IMG/VR virus record: IMGVR_UViG_3300030376_003544
Location: 1 to 30,102 of that record
Length of the DNA stretch: 30,102 nucleotides
DNA from: a virus
Taxonomy: Duplodnaviria > Caudoviricetes
Strand: one strand, 5' to 3'
Positions 1-20,264 of this stretch are shown here, one piece after another; the first letter of the stretch is position 1, and every line of letters begins with the position of its first letter. Made by a program: the position numbers and the translations under genes. The notes beneath the pieces were generated by a model. The model did not search any database. It was not told the origin of the DNA and saw only the letters and a list, made by a program, of their open reading frames with translations.

Positions 1-838
1 TTAAACATTTAGGATAAGGTCTTGACTTGGTTCTTTGTCTTTCTTTAAACTGTTCCCAGATAGATTCACCTACTATTAAACCAGCGGGTGACCAGGTTTC
101 TGCATCCCAGTAGCTTTGTAGTAAACTCTTAGAGCCATGCTTTAGTAGTTGTTCACACGGATCTTTCTCTAATAGCTTAGCTACTTTAACTTTACCAGCA
201 CCAATTATCTTAGCAACTTTCTGTACTGCTGCTTGACCAGCTTCATCTTTATCAAAGAATAATATTACGGATTCAAACTTTCTAATCCATTCTCTCTGCT
301 CAAGTACAACCTTACAACCTGATGCACTTGGTATAGATACTACAGGAAATATTCTATTGTATTTATCTAGGAAACTTTGTGCCACTGCACATGCATCTAG
401 CTCGCCTTCAGTTATTACAAGTGTCTTACCACCGTTACTTACTGCTTGACCGAACAATTCTATATTAGTAAAGTTACCGTGTGCTAGAAAACTTTTAGGT
501 AACTTACGTTCTTTAAATGCAATCACTTTACCATCATACTTATTTGTATACGGATAGAAGTGTGAACCACCGGAACCGTCAGGATTTACTGCCATCTTAA
601 TTCCGAAGTGATCTACTACTTGTTTACTTATACCACGAGAAGTAATTGCAAAACTATTTAACTCATGGATTTCATCGAGTGTTATGCTGCTATTAGGTTT
701 AGCAACAGGTTCTAAGTCATTCATATTATTTACTTTCTTAGTTGAATATTGACATGAAAAACAGTATGCGCCGTCTTCATAAATTGTAAACGCATCTGAT
801 GAATCACACTTTGGGCAGGCTGTCTGCTTGTAACTCAT
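1..838 (-). CDS. T7 gp4-like DNA primase/helicase, N-terminal part (runs off the window edge)
   Basis: Translated by hand from ATG at 838: MSYKQTACPKCDSSDAFTIYEDGAYCFSCQY (Cys4 Zn ribbon), then TOPRIM motifs LVITEGELDA and FFDKDEAG. Absent from the ORF track because there is no stop in the window. Confidence 0.93.
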   Translation of the reverse strand, partial: MSYKQTACPKCDSSDAFTIYEDGAYCFSCQYSTKKVNNMNDLEPVAKPNSSITLDEIHELNSFAITSRGISKQVVDHFGIKMAVNPDGSGGSHFYPYTNKYDGKVIAFKERKLPKSFLAHGNFTNIELFGQAVSNGGKTLVITEGELDACAVAQSFLDKYNRIFPVVSIPSASGCKVVLEQREWIRKFESVILFFDKDEAGQAAVQKVAKIIGAGKVKVAKLLEKDPCEQLLKHGSKSLLQSYWDAETWSPAGLIVGESIWEQFKERQRTKSRPYPKCL

Positions 839-1247
839 AATTAATTGTCCTTTCCAATAACTCTTTGTCATTTACTATTGTTAAAGGTAAAGCGTCTATC
901 CACTTTTCTACTTTCACATAGAGATATTCTTTACCTTTATTTGTTATGTGTTTATCTAATGTTATGTGATAAACTTTATTGTCATTAAACTTTTCAAAGA
1001 TACCTTGGTATGTATCTAACAGTGGCTTCACTACATTATCTAGGTCCGCCATTCTATTAGATACACCAGCAATAATCTCAAACTCCAGGAAATCTGAATC
1101 TTCAAAGGGCCATTCAACCCCTTGAAGTTCATCTCTCAATTCATTCTGATACTCTACGTACTTGATCTGCTTTATCGCTTTGTTCCTGTACGTCATCTGA
1201 TTTGCTGACAGAGGTTTCACCTTGAATGTGTGCTTTAATATCTTCAT
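804..1247 (-). CDS. RusA-like Holliday junction resolvase
   Basis: N-terminal KPLSAN and the catalytic DLDNVVKPLLD...FNDNKV motif of the RusA family; replication context. Confidence 0.8.
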   Translation of the reverse strand: MKILKHTFKVKPLSANQMTYRNKAIKQIKYVEYQNELRDELQGVEWPFEDSDFLEFEIIAGVSNRMADLDNVVKPLLDTYQGIFEKFNDNKVYHITLDKHITNKGKEYLYVKVEKWIDALPLTIVNDKELLERTINYELQADSLPKV

Positions 1248-1956
1248 ATTCCGTCCATGTCGTTAGCATTCTTAGTAGCTTATGACTAAGATCTAACTGT
1301 TTCATAGTTTGTTCATGCTCTTTCCAAGTAGCTTTAATCTTATTCCATTGTCTTGCTAATGGTACACCAGCTAATATCTTTGCTGCTTTCTTAGGACCAA
1401 TACCTTTAAGACCTGGAATGTTATCTGTATTATCACCAGTTAAACATTGAAGATACAAATTATGTAAGGCTTCTTCTTCATTAATAAGTTGCCAAGTATC
1501 TTTACCATAGTTATAGTGATGACCTGGTATCTGTAATAAATCTTTATCAATACCACAGATTACATAGTCTTCTTTATTTTCTAGTGCTTCGTGTGCCCAG
1601 ATAGAAACTAAATCATCTGCTTCCATACCATCTGCTTGGACAGCACCTTTAGATACAGCATATTTATGTAGATAATTTAAGCTATCTTTTATTTTCTTAT
1701 CAAGTTCAGGACGATTAGATTTATAATTAGGTGCTAAATCTTTTCTAAAGTTTCCTTTACCTTTAACTGCATATAAAACTACAAGCTTTTCTCTATCATC
1801 AAAAGGATTAATTAATTTATTAGATACTTCCATCTTCATATTATTACAGAAAGTATTGTAGCTTCGTCTTAATTCAGATTGATTCTTAGCTTTGTAAGCT
1901 ATCTTAAAGAATATAGAATCAGTATCTACCAACATAAACTTTTGAATTGGTTTCAT
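1141..1956 (-). CDS. 5'-3' exonuclease (T7 gp6/FEN-like)
   Basis: Motifs LVDTDS, NFRKDLAPNYKSNR, EADD, IDKDLLQIPG, and the H3TH motif GDNTDNIPGLKGIGPKKA. Confidence 0.93.
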   Translation of the reverse strand: MKPIQKFMLVDTDSIFFKIAYKAKNQSELRRSYNTFCNNMKMEVSNKLINPFDDREKLVVLYAVKGKGNFRKDLAPNYKSNRPELDKKIKDSLNYLHKYAVSKGAVQADGMEADDLVSIWAHEALENKEDYVICGIDKDLLQIPGHHYNYGKDTWQLINEEEALHNLYLQCLTGDNTDNIPGLKGIGPKKAAKILAGVPLARQWNKIKATWKEHEQTMKQLDLSHKLLRMLTTWTEYEDIKAHIQGETSVSKSDDVQEQSDKADQVRRVSE

Positions 1957-2459
1957 TTAGTTTTCCTTTCATCTTTTATTGTATACTTAGAAGTGTTAGG
2001 TGTTTGTTCTAAATACTTACGAACATCTGCATAGAATCCATTAAACTTAGAAGGTTTAATTAGATCTACTAATTCCCAGTACTCTAATATACCTAGGGTA
2101 TTTACTTTAACTGTATCTCCTGGAGTTAATAAACGCTGAGGTCTTTCATTCCATTCACAGAATATAAAAGCATTTGTTAATTCTCTTTGCTTTAATAAGT
2201 AAATCATTTTATTACATGGTATATTGTACCAGGTTTTAATAAACTTAACATCAACATTACCCCAGATCTGATCGACACCATCAACTTGCCAAGCATCATG
2301 GTCTTTCCATGTACCTCTATCAATTAAGTGCCACTCAAATATCTCGCATTCAATATCAAGTTTTAATTGTTCAAGCGAACGTCCTCTAGGATTATACTTT
2401 TCTGAACGTGCTTCTCTCTGATTAACAAAGTCTTTTGTTACATTAATTTCTACTATCAT
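1953..2459 (-). CDS. Putative PD-(D/E)xK endonuclease resembling T4 DenB (endonuclease IV)
   Basis: E...W...VDG...VDVK core and C-terminal LVDLIKPSKFNGFY, similar to my recollection of the DenB C-terminus (LRKVVRKSNYNGWY). Confidence 0.5.
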   Translation of the reverse strand: MIVEINVTKDFVNQREARSEKYNPRGRSLEQLKLDIECEIFEWHLIDRGTWKDHDAWQVDGVDQIWGNVDVKFIKTWYNIPCNKMIYLLKQRELTNAFIFCEWNERPQRLLTPGDTVKVNTLGILEYWELVDLIKPSKFNGFYADVRKYLEQTPNTSKYTIKDERKTK

Positions 2460-4303
2460 TAGTGAACCTCCGCATAGTTATTACCGATTGTACCTTCACC
2501 TGCCATGATTGTAACTCCTACTTTCTTAGGACCTTCAGCAAATGATTCTATTAGAATTTCTAATACACGATCAGCGTGTTCTTCTTTAACTGACCAAGCT
2601 ACTTCATCATGATAATAAAGTCGGGGTTCAGCATCCAGCTTTTCTTCTTTAATCTTATTCATTTGATAAGCTACTGCTGCTTTAGTTGTAATAGCTTCAC
2701 AACTTTGTAGTAAATAATTAAGTGTCTGATAATCCTGAGGTGTATATACTTTACGACCATCAAGACCAGGAACATAACCTTCAGTACTGCTTTGTGCATC
2801 TGTTGTATTCCATATAGAAACTAACTTATCTTTTAATGCTTTCAAACCAGGTATCGCATTACCGTATGCGTCAATAGATTCTTTACCTCGTTTAATATTA
2901 CCTACACCTGTTAATACTTTACCAAGTTTAGTAGCACCAGCACCAAATAGAAATGCATAGATCCAAGTCTTTGCAGTACGTCTATCAGTATCAATGATGT
3001 CTGCGTTATACTGATGTATATCTCCACTCATAATTTGGTTAGTGAGGTTATCATCTTTAGCATAATGTGCAAGAGATCTGAATTGATTACCACTAGAGTC
3101 AGCACCTACTATTTTTCTTCCAGGTTCTGCTGTTAATAATTCACGAAGTTCTTTACCAAGTTCAGCAGTTATTGCAGGTAGATTAGCGATAACTTCATGA
3201 CGACATCTAAATGTAGGCGTACCTACTACCCAGAGTTTACCATGTAATCTTCTACCGAACTGTAGGTTTTCTATCCAACCTTCTACTACACCACGTCTAG
3301 ATCTAAGTGTTGTCCAATGATGTATAGCAGATCCATCCCAACCTAATTTATCTAAAGAAGTTTTAGTTAGCTTAGGAGTTTTCTTAATGAACTCTCTACC
3401 TAATCTTTCCATCTTCCAATCATCAGGTTCCCATCCGATTGTGTAAAGATATTCTTTAACTTGTTCTAGATTACCTAGGTTTGCAGGCTTAGTTACTTTT
3501 CTTTGGAACTCTTTACCTGCTGCCCAGACTTTAGTGTTCTCTGGTTTAACATCTATCTTTAGGTACTCACTTAACATACGTGCAGTAGCTGCAGTATAAT
3601 AACCTTTCTTAGTATACTTCGGTGTCTTTGGTTGCTTATCAATTAACCGAGTGACAGCTGGAAGTTTAGGCTCAACAATCTTTTCTATTTCATTCATTCG
3701 AGATTTAATTTTATCTAATAAATTCAATGCCTTATGCTTATCGAATGACCATCCATAGTATCTACAGTATGCATCGAATTTAGCAGTTGACATTTCATTC
3801 TTTAAACCTTCACGAATGAGGGGTTGCTTGTCAGCTAACTGTTTAAGTTCTTCCATTAAAATATTAAATATTTTAGTATTCAGTTTAACATCTCTTACGC
3901 AATAGTCCATCATCTTCTCAGAGAACTGTGACCAATCATCGTAATCTCCTTTGTGATATTTAAGATACTCACCCCATCCAGCTAACCCATGTTTATGTGG
4001 TCGTCTGTAATTTAATACTTGAGATGCTATCCATGTATCGAAGAACCTATCTCCATCATACAAATCAATATCATAAAGTTTCTTTATTATTAAAGCATCA
4101 AACCCTATTCCGTTATGTGCTACTAATAACTTTGCGTGTTGTAATAATGACAGACCCATCTTAATATTGCCATCATATTTTCTTTCAATATCTGTAGTGT
4201 CTGCGTATCTCATGATGCGACCAGTGTCTATGTCTTGTATGACTAGACACCAGATTTTAGTTGCATCAAGACCGTCTGTTTCTATATCAAACGTTAGTCT
4301 CAT
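2459..4303 (-). CDS. polA: Family A DNA polymerase with 3'-5' exonuclease domain
   Basis: ExoI FDIETDG, ExoII HNGIGFD, ExoIII YCVRDV; motif A DSSGNQFR, motif B RRTAKTWIYAFLFG, motif C YHDE. Start moved to ATG 4303, which follows an AGGAGA RBS. Confidence 0.96.
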   Translation of the reverse strand: MRLTFDIETDGLDATKIWCLVIQDIDTGRIMRYADTTDIERKYDGNIKMGLSLLQHAKLLVAHNGIGFDALIIKKLYDIDLYDGDRFFDTWIASQVLNYRRPHKHGLAGWGEYLKYHKGDYDDWSQFSEKMMDYCVRDVKLNTKIFNILMEELKQLADKQPLIREGLKNEMSTAKFDAYCRYYGWSFDKHKALNLLDKIKSRMNEIEKIVEPKLPAVTRLIDKQPKTPKYTKKGYYTAATARMLSEYLKIDVKPENTKVWAAGKEFQRKVTKPANLGNLEQVKEYLYTIGWEPDDWKMERLGREFIKKTPKLTKTSLDKLGWDGSAIHHWTTLRSRRGVVEGWIENLQFGRRLHGKLWVVGTPTFRCRHEVIANLPAITAELGKELRELLTAEPGRKIVGADSSGNQFRSLAHYAKDDNLTNQIMSGDIHQYNADIIDTDRRTAKTWIYAFLFGAGATKLGKVLTGVGNIKRGKESIDAYGNAIPGLKALKDKLVSIWNTTDAQSSTEGYVPGLDGRKVYTPQDYQTLNYLLQSCEAITTKAAVAYQMNKIKEEKLDAEPRLYYHDEVAWSVKEEHADRVLEILIESFAEGPKKVGVTIMAGEGTIGNNYAEVH

Positions 4304-4487
4304 TCTCCTTAGCCTTTCTGCTGGCATTAAGCTCAGCTTTAAGTTGTTGATTATCTTTCATTAAATTATCAAATACATTTAATAACAAGAATTTATTTTC
4401 ATCACCTATTATTGCTCGCCTAACATCATCAACCGTTACAGGATTGTTATTAGCAACATTAGTTTCTTGTAAATCTTCTTTACTCAT
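4287..4487 (-). CDS. Hypothetical protein
   Basis: 66-aa ORF tightly packed in the operon, with GAGGAG RBS. Confidence 0.6.
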   Translation of the reverse strand: MSKEDLQETNVANNNPVTVDDVRRAIIGDENKFLLLNVFDNLMKDNQQLKAELNASRKAKENETNV

Positions 4488-4489
4488 AC

Positions 4490-4993
4490 TTACTCCTCAT
4501 ATTGTAGGTTAGCTACATTATTTTTAAGTTCATTTTCTAAATCTCTTTTGTCTCTATCTTCAGGATTTAAAATGTCAGGTAGTATACCACAATCTTCTTT
4601 AGTTATGTTAGGTCCTACCCATCCTTCAGGTTTTACCATGTCTGGTAAACCAAATGGATTTTGCCTGGATTTATTTGCTCCAGGTTCTTTAGCCATATTA
4701 GAATGATGTATCTTATCCCATACTACATCAGCATTACATTTAAATAAATCTAATGTACCAATTGCAATAACAATAAGATCAATCAAACCATCTACAACTT
4801 CTTTAGAATCATTCTTAAAGAAAGCTGCTTGAGTTTCTTCGAATTCTTCTTCAAGAAAATCTAATCTGAATGCTAGAAAATCTTTTAATAATTTATAATT
4901 CTTTGAGTGGTGCATATTTTCTACCCACTCTGTTGCACCAAACTTATAGTGCATATCATTTATATCTGATAGCCATTCACTTTTTAAGGTCAT
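4490..4993 (-). CDS. MazG-like/PRA-PH all-alpha dNTP pyrophosphatase (DR2231-like)
   Basis: EEEFEE...EVVDGLIDL acidic helices, plus IHHSNMAK and MVKPEGWVGP. Confidence 0.85.
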   Translation of the reverse strand: MTLKSEWLSDINDMHYKFGATEWVENMHHSKNYKLLKDFLAFRLDFLEEEFEETQAAFFKNDSKEVVDGLIDLIVIAIGTLDLFKCNADVVWDKIHHSNMAKEPGANKSRQNPFGLPDMVKPEGWVGPNITKEDCGILPDILNPEDRDKRDLENELKNNVANLQYEE

Positions 4994-5768
4994 ACTTTAT
5001 AAACTCCTTATGTTTATAGTCTAATATATTTAAATCTGTAGGTTCAAAGTCTGCGAATTCATGTTGACGTAGCAAACTGTATAATGGTGGGGCTGTTATA
5101 GCTCTACTCATTTGCTCAGTTACTTTATCAAAATGTTCTTTATAAATGTGACAATCACCTATGATTAAATTAATTCTTCTTGGTTTTAGGTTACTAAGAC
5201 TTGCTATATTTGCTAAGAAAGTTGCTGCAAATATCATATCACTAGGAACACCAACCATCCAATCACCAGATCTTTGGTATACTGTTAAATCTAAATTAAA
5301 ATTATCTACGTAAAATTGATACATAAAATGACAGCATGGTAAGCTAGATGTATGTGTATTCTTAGGATTCCATGCATTTATTAACAGCCTACGATCTTGT
5401 GGATGGTTTCTTATATTGTATAGTAATTCTTCTACTTGATTAACGCCATTATAATCAACCCAACTATTACCGTAGTCAATGCGTAACTCGCCAGTATCAG
5501 GATCTCCGAACTCATTCCAATAATTACACCCCCATTTCTGAAAATCTTTTATATTTTTAGGTCCTCTAATTATTGCAGCGTATTCACCTAACACACTGTT
5601 AACATTCATTTTACGTGTTGTAATTACAGGAAATCTATCACCACTCATATCGAAATGTAATGTCTGAGTAAATAAAGATTTTACCCAGCCATTTCTAGTT
5701 TCTCTATAATCACCATACGTTAGTATCTCATCAGCTATACGTAAGTATTTGCTTTCATATCTAGTCAT
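4977..5768 (-). CDS. Thymidylate synthase-fold enzyme, predicted dCMP C5-(hydroxy)methyltransferase
   Basis: ThyA motifs FPVITTRK, DRRLLINAWNP, LPCCH, YQRSGD and GDCHIY. RSGDWMVGVPSD places Asp at the position equivalent to E. coli Asn177. Confidence 0.85.
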   Translation of the reverse strand: MTRYESKYLRIADEILTYGDYRETRNGWVKSLFTQTLHFDMSGDRFPVITTRKMNVNSVLGEYAAIIRGPKNIKDFQKWGCNYWNEFGDPDTGELRIDYGNSWVDYNGVNQVEELLYNIRNHPQDRRLLINAWNPKNTHTSSLPCCHFMYQFYVDNFNLDLTVYQRSGDWMVGVPSDMIFAATFLANIASLSNLKPRRINLIIGDCHIYKEHFDKVTEQMSRAITAPPLYSLLRQHEFADFEPTDLNILDYKHKEFIKYDLKK

Positions 5769-6043
5769 ATCTTTTTATTTTCTAGGTACGCTGCAAACAT
5801 TGCACAATAGACTGCCATATCTACAAGCGTATCTTCTAAAGATTCAAAGTTAATTTCTTTATCTTCATTTTCTGCTAAGCTACGCATACGTAAATACTTA
5901 GTATGAATCATATGCATATAAGATTTATTTCCATACGGAAAGTAATCTTCTTCTGTCCACATATCTCCTTGATAATCAGCTTGCTTCTTTTCTTTAAGCT
6001 CAGCTGCTTCATGTAAGATTGTTGATGCTGTTACTTTAGCCAT
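5765..6043 (-). CDS. DUF1599 / nucleotide-modification-associated (Nmad1-like) helical protein
   Basis: EKKQADY...IHTKYLRMRSL...ESLEDTLVDMAVY pattern. Start reassigned to ATG 6043, downstream of AAGGA. Confidence 0.75.
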   Translation of the reverse strand: MAKVTASTILHEAAELKEKKQADYQGDMWTEEDYFPYGNKSYMHMIHTKYLRMRSLAENEDKEINFESLEDTLVDMAVYCAMFAAYLENKKI

Positions 6044-6309: not shown

Positions 6310-6714
6310 ATGGGTTATGAAAAATGTGGTAAACACCCGAATTCTCTTGCACAACTTAGGCCAGTTATAGATTCTGAAACTGCTCGAGAGATGCAAGCAC
6401 GTGGCGCAGAGAAGCGCCGACAAAATAAAGCACTCCGAGATGCTATGAAGCTGTCAGCCTCCGAGTTTAAAAAAATTCGAGATGAAGTTATTACTGAAAT
6501 GCCATCAGCTGTTGACATTCTAAAAGTTCAGCTAGCAAAAGCGATACAAGTAGAAGATCAAGAGACAATTGAACGACTGGCCATAGCGTTAGCCGAGTAT
6601 GAACAGCCAAAGTTGCAACGTATTGATCAAACGAATCTAGCTTTAGATACGTCAGACATGTCTGAAGAAGATCTGCAACGTAAAATCGCTGAGCTGTCCG
6701 CCGCAAGTGACTAG
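6310..6714 (+). CDS. Putative terminase small subunit
   Basis: HPNSLAQLRP...ETAREMQARG N-terminus and YEQPKLQRID...DMSEEDL C-terminus typical of TerS-like proteins. GGAGG RBS; shares an upstream motif with terL. Confidence 0.6.
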   Translation: MGYEKCGKHPNSLAQLRPVIDSETAREMQARGAEKRRQNKALRDAMKLSASEFKKIRDEVITEMPSAVDILKVQLAKAIQVEDQETIERLAIALAEYEQPKLQRIDQTNLALDTSDMSEEDLQRKIAELSAASD

Positions 6715-6933: not shown

Positions 6934-7009
6934 TGGGGTGACTATTGAGATTTGAACTCAAACTAACAGAATCACAATCTATCGTGCTAACCATTACACT
7001 ATAGTCACC
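6934..7009 (-). tRNA. tRNA-His (GUG)
   Basis: G-GTGACTA TA GTGT AATGGTTA GCAC G ATAGA TTGTGAT TCTGT TAGT TTGAG TTCAAAT CTCAA TAGTCAC C CCA. Full cloverleaf, G-1:C73 His identity element, encoded CCA. Confidence 0.95.
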
Positions 7010-12813: not shown

Positions 12814-13194
12814 TTAAGTGCGCTTCCTTATATGAAATGTTGTAGTACCTTTAGCTCTCGCAATTGAGAGCATGTGGTTAGTACCTCTACCACCTTCGAA
12901 TCCTATAACGTAGTCAGGATCCTGGTCAAGCATAAGCTGATTCCTTATTGGACCAGCCGATTTACCATGCACGTTCCATTGAGCAGGGAAGTCTTTCTGC
13001 TCAATACCTAAAGTAAATGCATAGTTTGCAGCAAGAGAGTCCGCACCTCGTGCAGCACCGTGAATGATAGTAGTTACCTCCTGGTCGAACTCACGTTTAA
13101 TGTAAGCACTGAAGTCGTCGAAACGCTTCATGAACCATTGGTAGTCGTTGAAGTCTCGTCCTCCGCAGACAAGAACAGTTACTCTTTTAGCCAT
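12814..13194 (-). CDS. SLOG-family protein (DUF2493/YspA-like)
   Basis: Motifs VLVCGGRDF, IIHGAARGADSLA, AGPIRNQLM and GGRGT. Confidence 0.9.
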   Translation of the reverse strand: MAKRVTVLVCGGRDFNDYQWFMKRFDDFSAYIKREFDQEVTTIIHGAARGADSLAANYAFTLGIEQKDFPAQWNVHGKSAGPIRNQLMLDQDPDYVIGFEGGRGTNHMLSIARAKGTTTFHIRKRT

Positions 13195-19232: not shown

Positions 19233-20264
19233 ATGAAAAAATTATTTTCAATACTAACATTAATATTATTATTACCAACTCTTGCCTTTGCAGGCGGAGC
19301 TGTACTTAAGAACCATGTAAAGGCAGGATTTGTTTATGTAGGTCCAGTCGGAGATCATGGTTGGACATACATGCATGATCAAGGTCGTCAAATGGTTGAA
19401 GACGAGCTAGGTGATAAAGTATCAACAGTATATGTTGAGTCAGTACCGGAAGGTCCTGATGCTGCTAGGGTTATGCGTAACATGGCTCAAAGTGGTGTAG
19501 ACATTATATTTACTACTTCATTTGGTTATATGGATCAAACTTTAAAAGTTGCTAAAGAATTTCCAAATGTAAAATTTGAACATGCTACAGGTTATAAGCG
19601 CTCTGAGAATATAAGTGTTTATAGTAGTAGATTCTATGAAGGAAGATATATACAAGGTGTAATTGCTGGACATATGAGTAAAGCAGGTAAAGCTGGTTAT
19701 ATAGCTTCATTCCCAATTCCTGAAGTTATAAGAGGAATCAATGCATTTTATCTTGGTGCTACTAGTGTAAATCCAGATTTTGATTTAGATATAATATGGG
19801 TTAATACTTGGTATGACCCGGCTAAAGAAGCACAAGCTGCAGAAGTTTTAATTACTGGTGGTGTAGATATTATTACACAACATACTGATTCACCAGCACC
19901 TTTACAAACTGCTGCATCTAAAAATATATATGCATTTGGTCAAGCATCAGATATGATTGCTTTTGCACCTAAGACTCAGTTAACTTCTATTATGGATAAT
20001 TGGGGTCCTTATTATGTATCAAGAATAAAAGCCCTCATGAATGGTATGTGGGAAAGTGAAGATACATGGGGTGGCATGAGAACCGGAATGGTAGGCATGG
20101 CACCGTATACTAATATGCCTGATGACATTAAAGCAATAGCATTAGAAATAGAACATGCAATTCTTAATGGTGATTTAAATGTATTTGATGGCATAACTAA
20201 TGATAGTGGTTTGTTAGGAATGATGAACTACTTAGATGGTATTGACGCATCAGTACCTAATTAA
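19233..20264 (+). CDS. BMP/PnrA-family ABC transporter periplasmic substrate-binding protein (purine/nucleoside)
   Basis: Sec signal peptide (AFA); GFVYVGPVGDHGWTYMHDQGR, FTTSFGYMD, FEHATGYK, WVNTWYDP and QHTDSPAP motifs. Confidence 0.93.
   Translation: MKKLFSILTLILLLPTLAFAGGAVLKNHVKAGFVYVGPVGDHGWTYMHDQGRQMVEDELGDKVSTVYVESVPEGPDAARVMRNMAQSGVDIIFTTSFGYMDQTLKVAKEFPNVKFEHATGYKRSENISVYSSRFYEGRYIQGVIAGHMSKAGKAGYIASFPIPEVIRGINAFYLGATSVNPDFDLDIIWVNTWYDPAKEAQAAEVLITGGVDIITQHTDSPAPLQTAASKNIYAFGQASDMIAFAPKTQLTSIMDNWGPYYVSRIKALMNGMWESEDTWGGMRTGMVGMAPYTNMPDDIKAIALEIEHAILNGDLNVFDGITNDSGLLGMMNYLDGIDASVPN

Follow-up and report, generated by a model that had tools for sequence, protein, structure and literature searches.

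A predicted cytosine-substitution cassette in marine phages related to Roseobacter phage CRP-7

Does a marine phage with a T7-type replication operon build its genome without ordinary cytosine? The question is raised by IMG/VR virus record IMGVR_UViG_3300030376_003544, a linear fragment (completeness about 53%) whose entire 30,102 nucleotides form the window analyzed here. Five nearly contiguous minus-strand genes are at issue: Nmad1 (DUF1599; 5765..6043; 92 aa; Pfam 24.9 bits versus a cut-off of 25), a thymidylate synthase homologue predicted to be a deoxycytidine monophosphate (dCMP) C5-methylase (4977..5768; Pfam 220 bits), a MazG/PRA-PH-family pyrophosphohydrolase (4490..4993; Pfam PRA-PH 36 bits, above the cut-off; PHROG 671), a T7-type family A DNA polymerase, PolA (2459..4300; 613 aa; Pfam), and a 168-aa PD-(D/E)xK nuclease remotely related to T4 DenB (1953..2459; alignment, model and profile match). 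All five were found where a preliminary description of this DNA had placed them, on the evidence of Pfam, PHROG and open reading frame (ORF) positions; PolA most likely starts at 4300, judged by its ribosome-binding site, rather than at 4327 as first given. The cassette belongs to a clade of marine phages of ~58 kb whose relative CRP-7 is a 58.1 kb Roseobacter podovirus with a distant T7-like RNA polymerase (PMC6918029). We consider it probable that the cassette puts 5-methylcytosine (5mC) in the place of cytosine in the phage DNA, through dCMP methylation, removal of deoxycytidine triphosphate (dCTP), host kinases, deaminase-derived thymidylate and cutting of unmodified host DNA. The T4-like logic proposed earlier is supported as far as a cytosine-substitution cassette is concerned; the nearest model is not T4 but phage Xp12, where a MazG-Nmad1 fusion lies beside the synthase.

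From the genes, residues, folds, co-occurrence and enzyme swap described below, we infer the following activities and DNA base content. An Asp177/Leu143 synthase would methylate dCMP to 5-methyl-dCMP, and host kinases would raise this to the triphosphate, host enzymes being invoked because no phage kinase was found in the relatives' genomes searched. MazG and Nmad1 would strip dCTP, and perhaps deoxyuridine triphosphate (dUTP), to monophosphates that feed the synthase. Thymidylate would come from a deaminase acting either on some of the 5-methyl-dC pool, the route suggested for Xp12, or on dCMP, in the latter case via the host synthase. PolA would then incorporate the analogue, and the DenB-like nuclease would cut dC-containing DNA, recycling host dCMP.

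The nature of the synthase product is central to this scheme. Alignment to solved thymidylate synthases placed an Asp where these enzymes carry Asn177 (GVPFN motif), upholding the dCMP-type residue noted previously; its codon lies at 5238-5240. In its own numbering the window enzyme has Leu143, Cys146, His147, Asp169 and Asp177. Published rules state that Asp177 selects dCMP, that Asn169 marks hydroxylases, and that residue 143 directs a methyl product when Leu and a hydroxymethyl product when Asp or Glu (PMC13326640). The window synthase combines Cys146 and Asp177 with a hydrophobic residue 143 and Asp169, as expected of a dCMP methylase, and its predicted product from Leu143, Asp169 and Asp177 is 5-methyl-dCMP. 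Of the methyl or hydroxymethyl product suggested at first, only the methyl part therefore stands for this enzyme, which has Leu143. It also lacks the Asn177 of canonical ThyA (Asn in 0 of 54 clade enzymes), differs from gp42-type enzymes in Leu143 and in having no BLASTP match to gp42, and carries Asp169 in place of the Asn169 of 5-hydroxy-dCMP synthases; it scored above the broad TIGR03284 cut-off and below the PRK01827 cut-offs. Identity was 22% to the Xp12 enzyme and 46% to gp35 of phage Kolga EXVC016S. That the enzyme makes 5-hydroxymethyl- or 5-hydroxy-dCMP, or still uses dUMP, is very improbable: although the residue rules rest on few tested enzymes, none known to be of the window lineage, the published signature of either alternative product is ruled out by Leu143 and Asp169, and Asp177 is described in the literature as turning the enzyme away from dUMP (PMC13326640; PMC8670742). 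Five of seven synthases predicted as makers of 5-methyldeoxycytidine (5mdC) did make 5mdC (bioRxiv 2024.12.05.627091).

Comparison with relatives revealed that the synthase gene is exchangeable. Contigs fetched as loci carry L-numbers here, and genome records of relatives are labeled G001 to G005, G001 being the complete relative. Among 55 clade synthases, 41 had Leu143/Asp169/Asp177, 13 had Asp143/Asp169/Asp177 and were gp42-type, one was truncated and none had Asn177. Six PolA relatives (70% identity) had no match to the window synthase and encoded a gp42-type protein of 224-238 aa between Nmad1 and MazG; two of the clade's gp42-type proteins were 41 and 44% identical to T4 gp42. ThyX had been considered as the replacement in relatives without a tblastn match to the synthase and was rejected, as the gap holds the gp42-type enzyme. 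In most of the 13 contigs the gp42-type gene occupies the synthase slot, and in contigs L143 and L145 it is found upstream, a few genes away. A quick tree built from 45 PolA rows required two changes of the hydroxymethyl label, with one group nested among methylase lineages and the other their sister. A hydroxymethylase cannot make deoxythymidine monophosphate (dTMP). Because such an enzyme takes the same slot yet cannot supply dTMP, the slot most likely serves cytosine modification and not thymidylate supply, as judged from sequence comparison. This methylase/hydroxymethylase swap is the strongest argument for cytosine modification, comparative rather than direct.

The swap bears on a simpler proposal in which the cassette serves only thymidylate synthesis by a cytosine route: all 5-methyl-dCMP would be deaminated to dTMP, the DNA would keep ordinary cytosine, MazG and Nmad1 would clean nucleotide pools, and the nuclease would act generally on host DNA. 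The proposal gains from a deaminase in 50 of 50 relatives, from the lack of ThyX and of a second synthase in the complete relative, and from the lack of a kinase that would channel 5-methyl-dCMP into DNA. Yet it does not account for a hydroxymethylase in the slot in two lineages or for Kolga, which keeps an Asp177 synthase without a detectable deaminase, and Asp177 synthases recovered by MetaGPA are mostly on contigs with protected cytosines (PMC8670742). We regard thymidylate supply alone as unlikely, and cytosine substitution remains our preferred explanation.

Related gene sets were seen in other phages. A T4-like marine myophage contig (L151:4106-12092) has MazG, Nmad1 and a gp42-type enzyme followed directly by a deaminase, together with an alpha-glucosyltransferase homologue, sugar enzymes and a C5 DNA methylase; contigs of this type are a possible source pool for the swapped gp42-type gene. 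The cultured phages KF-1 (L157:4998-6952) and VPMS1 (L004:7995-9899) encode Leu143/Asp169/Asp177 synthases beside PolA and a pyrophosphohydrolase, KF-1 with a deaminase in addition, and both are further candidates for 5mC genomes.

Co-occurrence of the cassette genes, another expectation of the preliminary description, was evident across relatives. Loci were fetched by synthase (25), PolA (79) and hydroxymethylase (17) queries; after duplicates were merged, 91 contigs were looked at and 82 of them assigned to the clade, with the four remotest hydroxymethylase loci (L150-L153) excluded. The 43 contigs spanning the interval from a small terminase (terS)-like gene to the exonuclease carried Nmad1 and the nuclease in every case (43/43 each) and synthase and MazG in 42/43 each, numbers to be read with the caution that clade contigs are not independent, many being near-copies, and that 42 of the loci were fetched with synthase queries and so necessarily hold a synthase. 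The one contig that departs from this, L070, is cut short; the similar contig L095 has its synthase-MazG pair beyond the terS-like gene. The nuclease was present, with both synthase types, in 54 of 54 contigs in which the stretch from MazG to the exonuclease is visible, and every one of the 50 contigs that show both primase and RNA polymerase had a dCMP-family deaminase. CRP-7 has the same head and replication layout without synthase, Nmad1, window-type MazG, nuclease and deaminase. Hydroxymethyl-type lineages also hold extra genes between MazG and the nuclease. One has a tryptophan-halogenase-family gene and a 256-aa unknown gene (L082:5033-7316). Two contigs (L144:11814-12653 and L149:10816-11655; not L143 or L148) encode a 279-aa class I S-adenosylmethionine (SAM) methyltransferase (Pfam Methyltransf_23), which could modify 5-hydroxymethylcytosine (5hmC) further or be unrelated cargo.

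The deaminase was overlooked in the preliminary description and belongs to the cassette system. In relatives with 99-100% PolA identity it directly follows the primase, placing it just past the left end of the window, and in the nearest relatives (L006, L007, L087) the genes after the primase-helicase encode this deaminase and a T7-type RNA polymerase. With the deaminase from the relatives' contigs, the Xp12-type gene set of synthase, MazG-Nmad1 and deaminase is complete. ThyX was found in 0 of 10 records and, for the hydroxymethyl lineages, in 0 of 7 partial genomes. No second synthase or glycosyltransferase was present in the ORFs scanned in G001 (60 of 68) and G004 (51 of 58), the scan covering all but PolA, exonuclease, terminase and large structural genes.

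The hydroxymethyl lineages keep the deaminase, and neither ThyX nor an Asn177 synthase was found in them. On the ordinary reading, the deaminase of these lineages acts on dCMP for the host synthase. A bolder possibility is a kinase-free, one-gene switch between 5mC and 5hmC genomes in the marine clade, with the 5hmC lineages carrying 5hmC and 5-hydroxymethyluracil together; two substituted pyrimidines would arise if the modified triphosphate is the substrate of the deaminase, in the way that mSCD-B5 uses 5hmdCTP. We think this doubtful, with only a slim chance of being right.

The two small proteins flanking the synthase are the candidates for dCTP removal. Window MazG has the acidic motif (EEFEE at 49, DGLID at 68) and the fold of the MazG/PRA-PH family and is 38% identical to residues 53-137 of the Xp12 fusion; it likely removes dCTP or dUTP. 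Nmad1 (the Nmad names are reportedly those of Iyer et al. 2013) is 39% identical to residues 166-253 of the same fusion; its best phage matches were Kolga (64%), then Xp12/PaMx74-type phages (34-42%). Its structural model is all-helical with a predicted local distance difference test (pLDDT) score of 72. Top Foldseek rows were dCTPP1 and PRA-PH, weak matches at E>=0.16 with none at E<=0.001, and a wide structure search returned generic helical hairpins. Nmad1 is predicted to be a second nucleotide pyrophosphohydrolase domain of the MazG superfamily. Neither protein matched T4 gp56 by BLASTP.

The 168-aa ORF had no Pfam, PHROG or NCBIfam match, and tblastn against 50,697 phage records likewise found nothing; its family numbers 110 representatives in a library clustered at 50% identity. 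Putative active-site residues are Glu42, Asp60, Asp70 and Lys72; in 88 aligned homologues Glu42, Asp60 and Lys72 were invariant (88/88), position 70 was Asp or Glu, and Ser137 was kept in 84. The model (pLDDT 94.7) has a restriction-nuclease fold, with solved-structure matches to Hjc, NhoI, Eco15I and DpnI at non-specific scores and an Atlas match to PDDEXK_14 (score 0.92). Comparison by hhalign with a nine-sequence DenB profile gave a probability of 80% (pairwise E 1.4e-5, 92 columns), the alignment including both the catalytic core (DenB E-D-ExK) and a C-terminal S-x-Y/F-N-G-x-Y motif, and T4 DenB came top when the nuclease profile was run against 194 single templates, which included 40 shuffles. 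Ser137 aligns with DenB Ser176, which is required for DenB's restricted dC cleavage (PMC2175332). The top BFVD matches (E 3e-8 to 6e-6) carry no protein name; one has the length of Ac42 DenB (181 aa), and as its accession is unconfirmed it was not counted. A 156-aa ORF in contig L151, tried as a homologue, reached a probability of only 3% and was likewise not counted. On this evidence the DenB-like call made earlier stands in a narrower form: the protein is classed as a PD-(D/E)xK nuclease and a remote relative of T4 DenB/endonuclease IV, and not as a member of that family, because family-level tests fail. If the DNA is modified, specificity of the nuclease for dC is somewhat favored.

Modification might be partial, or complete without a dC-specific nuclease, the 168-aa protein being structure-specific or cutting the modified DNA of competing phages. 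The remoteness of the DenB homology, the best solved folds (NhoI/BisI-family and Holliday-junction resolvase) and the limit that the lack of a kinase could set on analogue supply all agree with such an arrangement. Set against this, the DenB match covers the C-terminal motif besides the catalytic core, and the nuclease accompanies both synthase types (54/54) and is absent from CRP-7, as expected of an enzyme reading unmodified cytosine. We give this alternative a small chance and retain 5mC substitution coupled to cleavage of unmodified DNA as the more probable arrangement.

The preliminary description had also counted a PolA with an atypical active site in the module; the site as an adaptation to the analogue was not borne out. 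PolA has Gln406 in motif A and Phe452 in motif B (codons 3083-3085 and 2945-2947) where T7 Pol has Glu and the second Tyr of motif B, positions that we take to be T7 E480 and Y530, the former presumably equivalent to the steric gate E710 in Klenow. All 78 clade rows that show motif A have both residues, some of these rows being duplicates. The motif A Gln is also found in Kolga, CRP-7 and DSS3_VP1 (presumably a deoxyuridine phage). An adaptation to 5mC was rejected on two counts: cassette-free CRP-7 has both Gln and Phe, and DSS3_VP1 has the Gln only; and in Edwardsiella phage KF-1 an Asp177 synthase occurs together with a polymerase that has the usual Glu. Because CRP-7 has Gln without the cassette and KF-1 has Glu, the odd site is a lineage trait, neither necessary for the cassette nor specific to it. 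PolA also scored below the cut-off for the aminoadenine polymerase DpoZ (NCBIfam NF038380, 27 bits versus a cut-off of 500).

Genomic word use is compatible with protected cytosines. In five methylase-type genomes (the window, G001, G002, G003 and G005) GATATC occurred twice against 64 expected and CGCG was not avoided; CRP-7 showed the reverse, with CGCG at 1 versus 28.6 expected and GATATC at 21 versus 21.8. BstUI, which cuts CGCG, is blocked by 5mC and 5hmC DNA, and EcoRV, which cuts GATATC, cleaves 5hmC DNA, while Xp12 contains no EcoRV site (PMC7653180). Near-absence of GATATC suggests an EcoRV-like system in the host and is a possible clue for host finding. Pooled palindrome avoidance separated the groups poorly; only single words did so.

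Several observations weigh against 5mC substitution. One is the gap at the kinase step. The preliminary description had seen no deoxynucleoside monophosphate (dNMP) kinase in the window, and this absence now extends to 3 of 3 near-complete relatives (G001-G003), the only relatives' records at least 90% complete, all of them methylase-type. DNMK (PF21448) was found in 0 of 5 records, and no P-loop kinase motif was found near an N-terminus in G001-G005, bar one spurious short ORF. Xp12-type systems have a phage kinase for 5-methyl-dCMP, according to older literature. Moreover, published in vivo synthase assays co-expressed a phage dNMP kinase (PMC13326640; bioRxiv 2024.12.05.627091). This is the main unexplained point of the cassette, and a kinase with a novel fold is possible. 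Concerning thymidylate, a deaminase beside a dCMP methylase permits a plain route to dTMP; no dihydrofolate reductase (DHFR) was present in the scanned ORFs of G001 (60/68) and G004 (51/58), whereas Xp12 has an annotated one; and a profile search of Kolga, which has the synthase, detected no nuclease or deaminase. As to the synthase, two of seven predicted methylases yielded no 5mdC (bioRxiv 2024.12.05.627091), identity to the Xp12 enzyme is low, and no assayed member of the window lineage is known. For the nuclease, there was no DenB-named PHROG match in 88 members, the nine-sequence DenB profile missed the window protein at E<=1e-4, and the top folds, NhoI and Eco15I (Z 7.5 and 6.2; not specific), come from entries that show methylated target DNA. 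Finally, the word test was post hoc, with one control, CRP-7, whose host probably differs, and EcoRV could not be judged on 5mC DNA. GATATC avoidance was weak or absent both in Kolga (11 versus 15.9 expected) and in hydroxymethyl types (observed/expected 9/18.2, 11/9.9, 2/8.6 and 4/7.3).

Pre-replicative cytosine substitution is already known in T4-like and Xp12-like phages, as are metagenomic Asp177 synthases beside PRA-PH and PolA. Full replacement of cytosine by 5mC in Xp12 is published (PMC7653180). In Xp12 a 257-aa MazG-Nmad1 fusion, whose first half matches window MazG and second half window Nmad1, directly precedes the synthase, followed by the deaminase and DHFR. The clade resembles Xp12 and PaMx74 (Mesyanzhinovviridae) in having an Asp177 synthase beside MazG and Nmad1 domains and a dCMP-family deaminase. 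It differs in that MazG and Nmad1 are separate genes flanking a synthase from another lineage (22% identity), several genes separate the deaminase from these, and no DHFR was found in the ORFs scanned. It also adds the DenB-like nuclease, of which the Xp12 record (63.8 kb) shows none in its first 50 kb, and has a T7-type replisome and RNA polymerase, an SU10-type head and an AT-rich marine genome. With T4 (gp42, gp56, DenB) the clade shares the logic, the gp42-type enzyme of the sister lineages and the remotely related nuclease; unlike T4, the window enzyme is methylase-type, the pyrophosphatases have no BLASTP match to gp56, and neither a gp1-type kinase nor, in the scanned ORFs of G001 and G004, a glucosyltransferase was found. 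Kolga, a cultured SAR11 siphovirus, has the trio in the same order (Nmad1 64%, Asp177/Leu143 synthase 46%, MazG 46%) upstream of a PolA with the same Gln, whereas its virion genes differ from those of the clade. CRP-7 (58,106 bp) gives the best capsid match (55%) and shares the order PolA, exonuclease, primase, RNA polymerase and the motif A Gln; lacking the whole cassette and avoiding CGCG, it is a natural negative control.

MetaGPA placed an Asp177 synthase, PRA-PH, PolA and dCMP deaminase together on modified-cytosine contigs (PMC8670742; bioRxiv 2024.12.05.627091). The accessible portions of these accounts do not mention Nmad1, a DenB-like nuclease, the CRP-7-type group or a one-locus swap, and their supplements, which in the preprint list IMG/VR deaminases picked for a neighboring Asp177 synthase, may include the clade. 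Likewise, the accessible part of the Kolga isolation paper contains no mention of thymidylate synthase, modification or restriction (PMC8163748). The literature located held no report of this cassette in the CRP-7-type group or Kolga, with the same reserve regarding preprint supplements. New here are the phage group, the split Nmad1 and MazG with a DenB-like nuclease, the one-gene methyl/hydroxymethyl switch and Kolga as a test case. If the proposal is true, cytosine substitution extends to a SAR11 phage in culture and to a marine phage group that is common and has a T7-type replisome. Kolga with the core trio, cassette-free CRP-7 and lineages differing in one swapped enzyme form a matched experimental set. 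The cassette would also provide a small new family of candidate unmodified-cytosine nucleases and a possible function for Nmad1, and it draws attention to the phosphorylation of a modified nucleotide when the phage brings no kinase of its own. Marine methylome studies would be confounded by phage DNA that is fully methylated.

The wider context of the cassette is that of a CRP-7-like phage. T7-type replication genes are on the minus strand of the window together with numerous small early genes, and terminase, SU10-type portal, capsid and adaptor genes are on the plus strand; the top match of the capsid among 50,697 phage records was CRP-7 (55%). G001 is complete (58,008 bp, with terminal repeats) and also encodes RNA polymerase and the large subunit of ribonucleotide reductase. 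At least half of the sampled words of the five-gene region were present in 14 public DNA runs, 12 labeled marine metagenome. The region is not an assembly artifact, because contigs from two public DNA runs span it (30/30 and 28/30 bins). Public RNA runs gave a few short contigs only over the region, and no expression evidence is claimed; a promoter scan was at chance level. Among 185,579 genomes of bacteria and archaea, a host search by PolA found no close match, the best reaching 28%.

Among and beside the five genes on the minus strand are a 66-aa ORF between MazG and PolA (4287..4487), seen only in nearer relatives, the 5'-3' exonuclease that is next in the replication cluster (1141..1956; Pfam, PHROG), and the 5' part of a primase-helicase cut by the window end (1..835; Pfam, PHROG). 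Upstream of the cassette lies a minus-strand tRNA-His (GTG) gene (6934-7008). Between portal and Hsp20, a gene at 19233-20264 encodes a Bmp/PnrA-family periplasmic binding protein (Pfam 197 bits); this family includes nucleoside-binding proteins, and G001 has no such match but a PstS-family protein elsewhere. The early genes include a YspA/cpYpsA-related SLOG-family protein (12814-13194; Pfam 50 bits). Amid the minus-strand early genes, a single plus-strand gene of 134 aa (6310-6714) is kept across the clade. Its product may be a displaced small terminase, because a weak homologue adjoins the large terminase in CRP-7.

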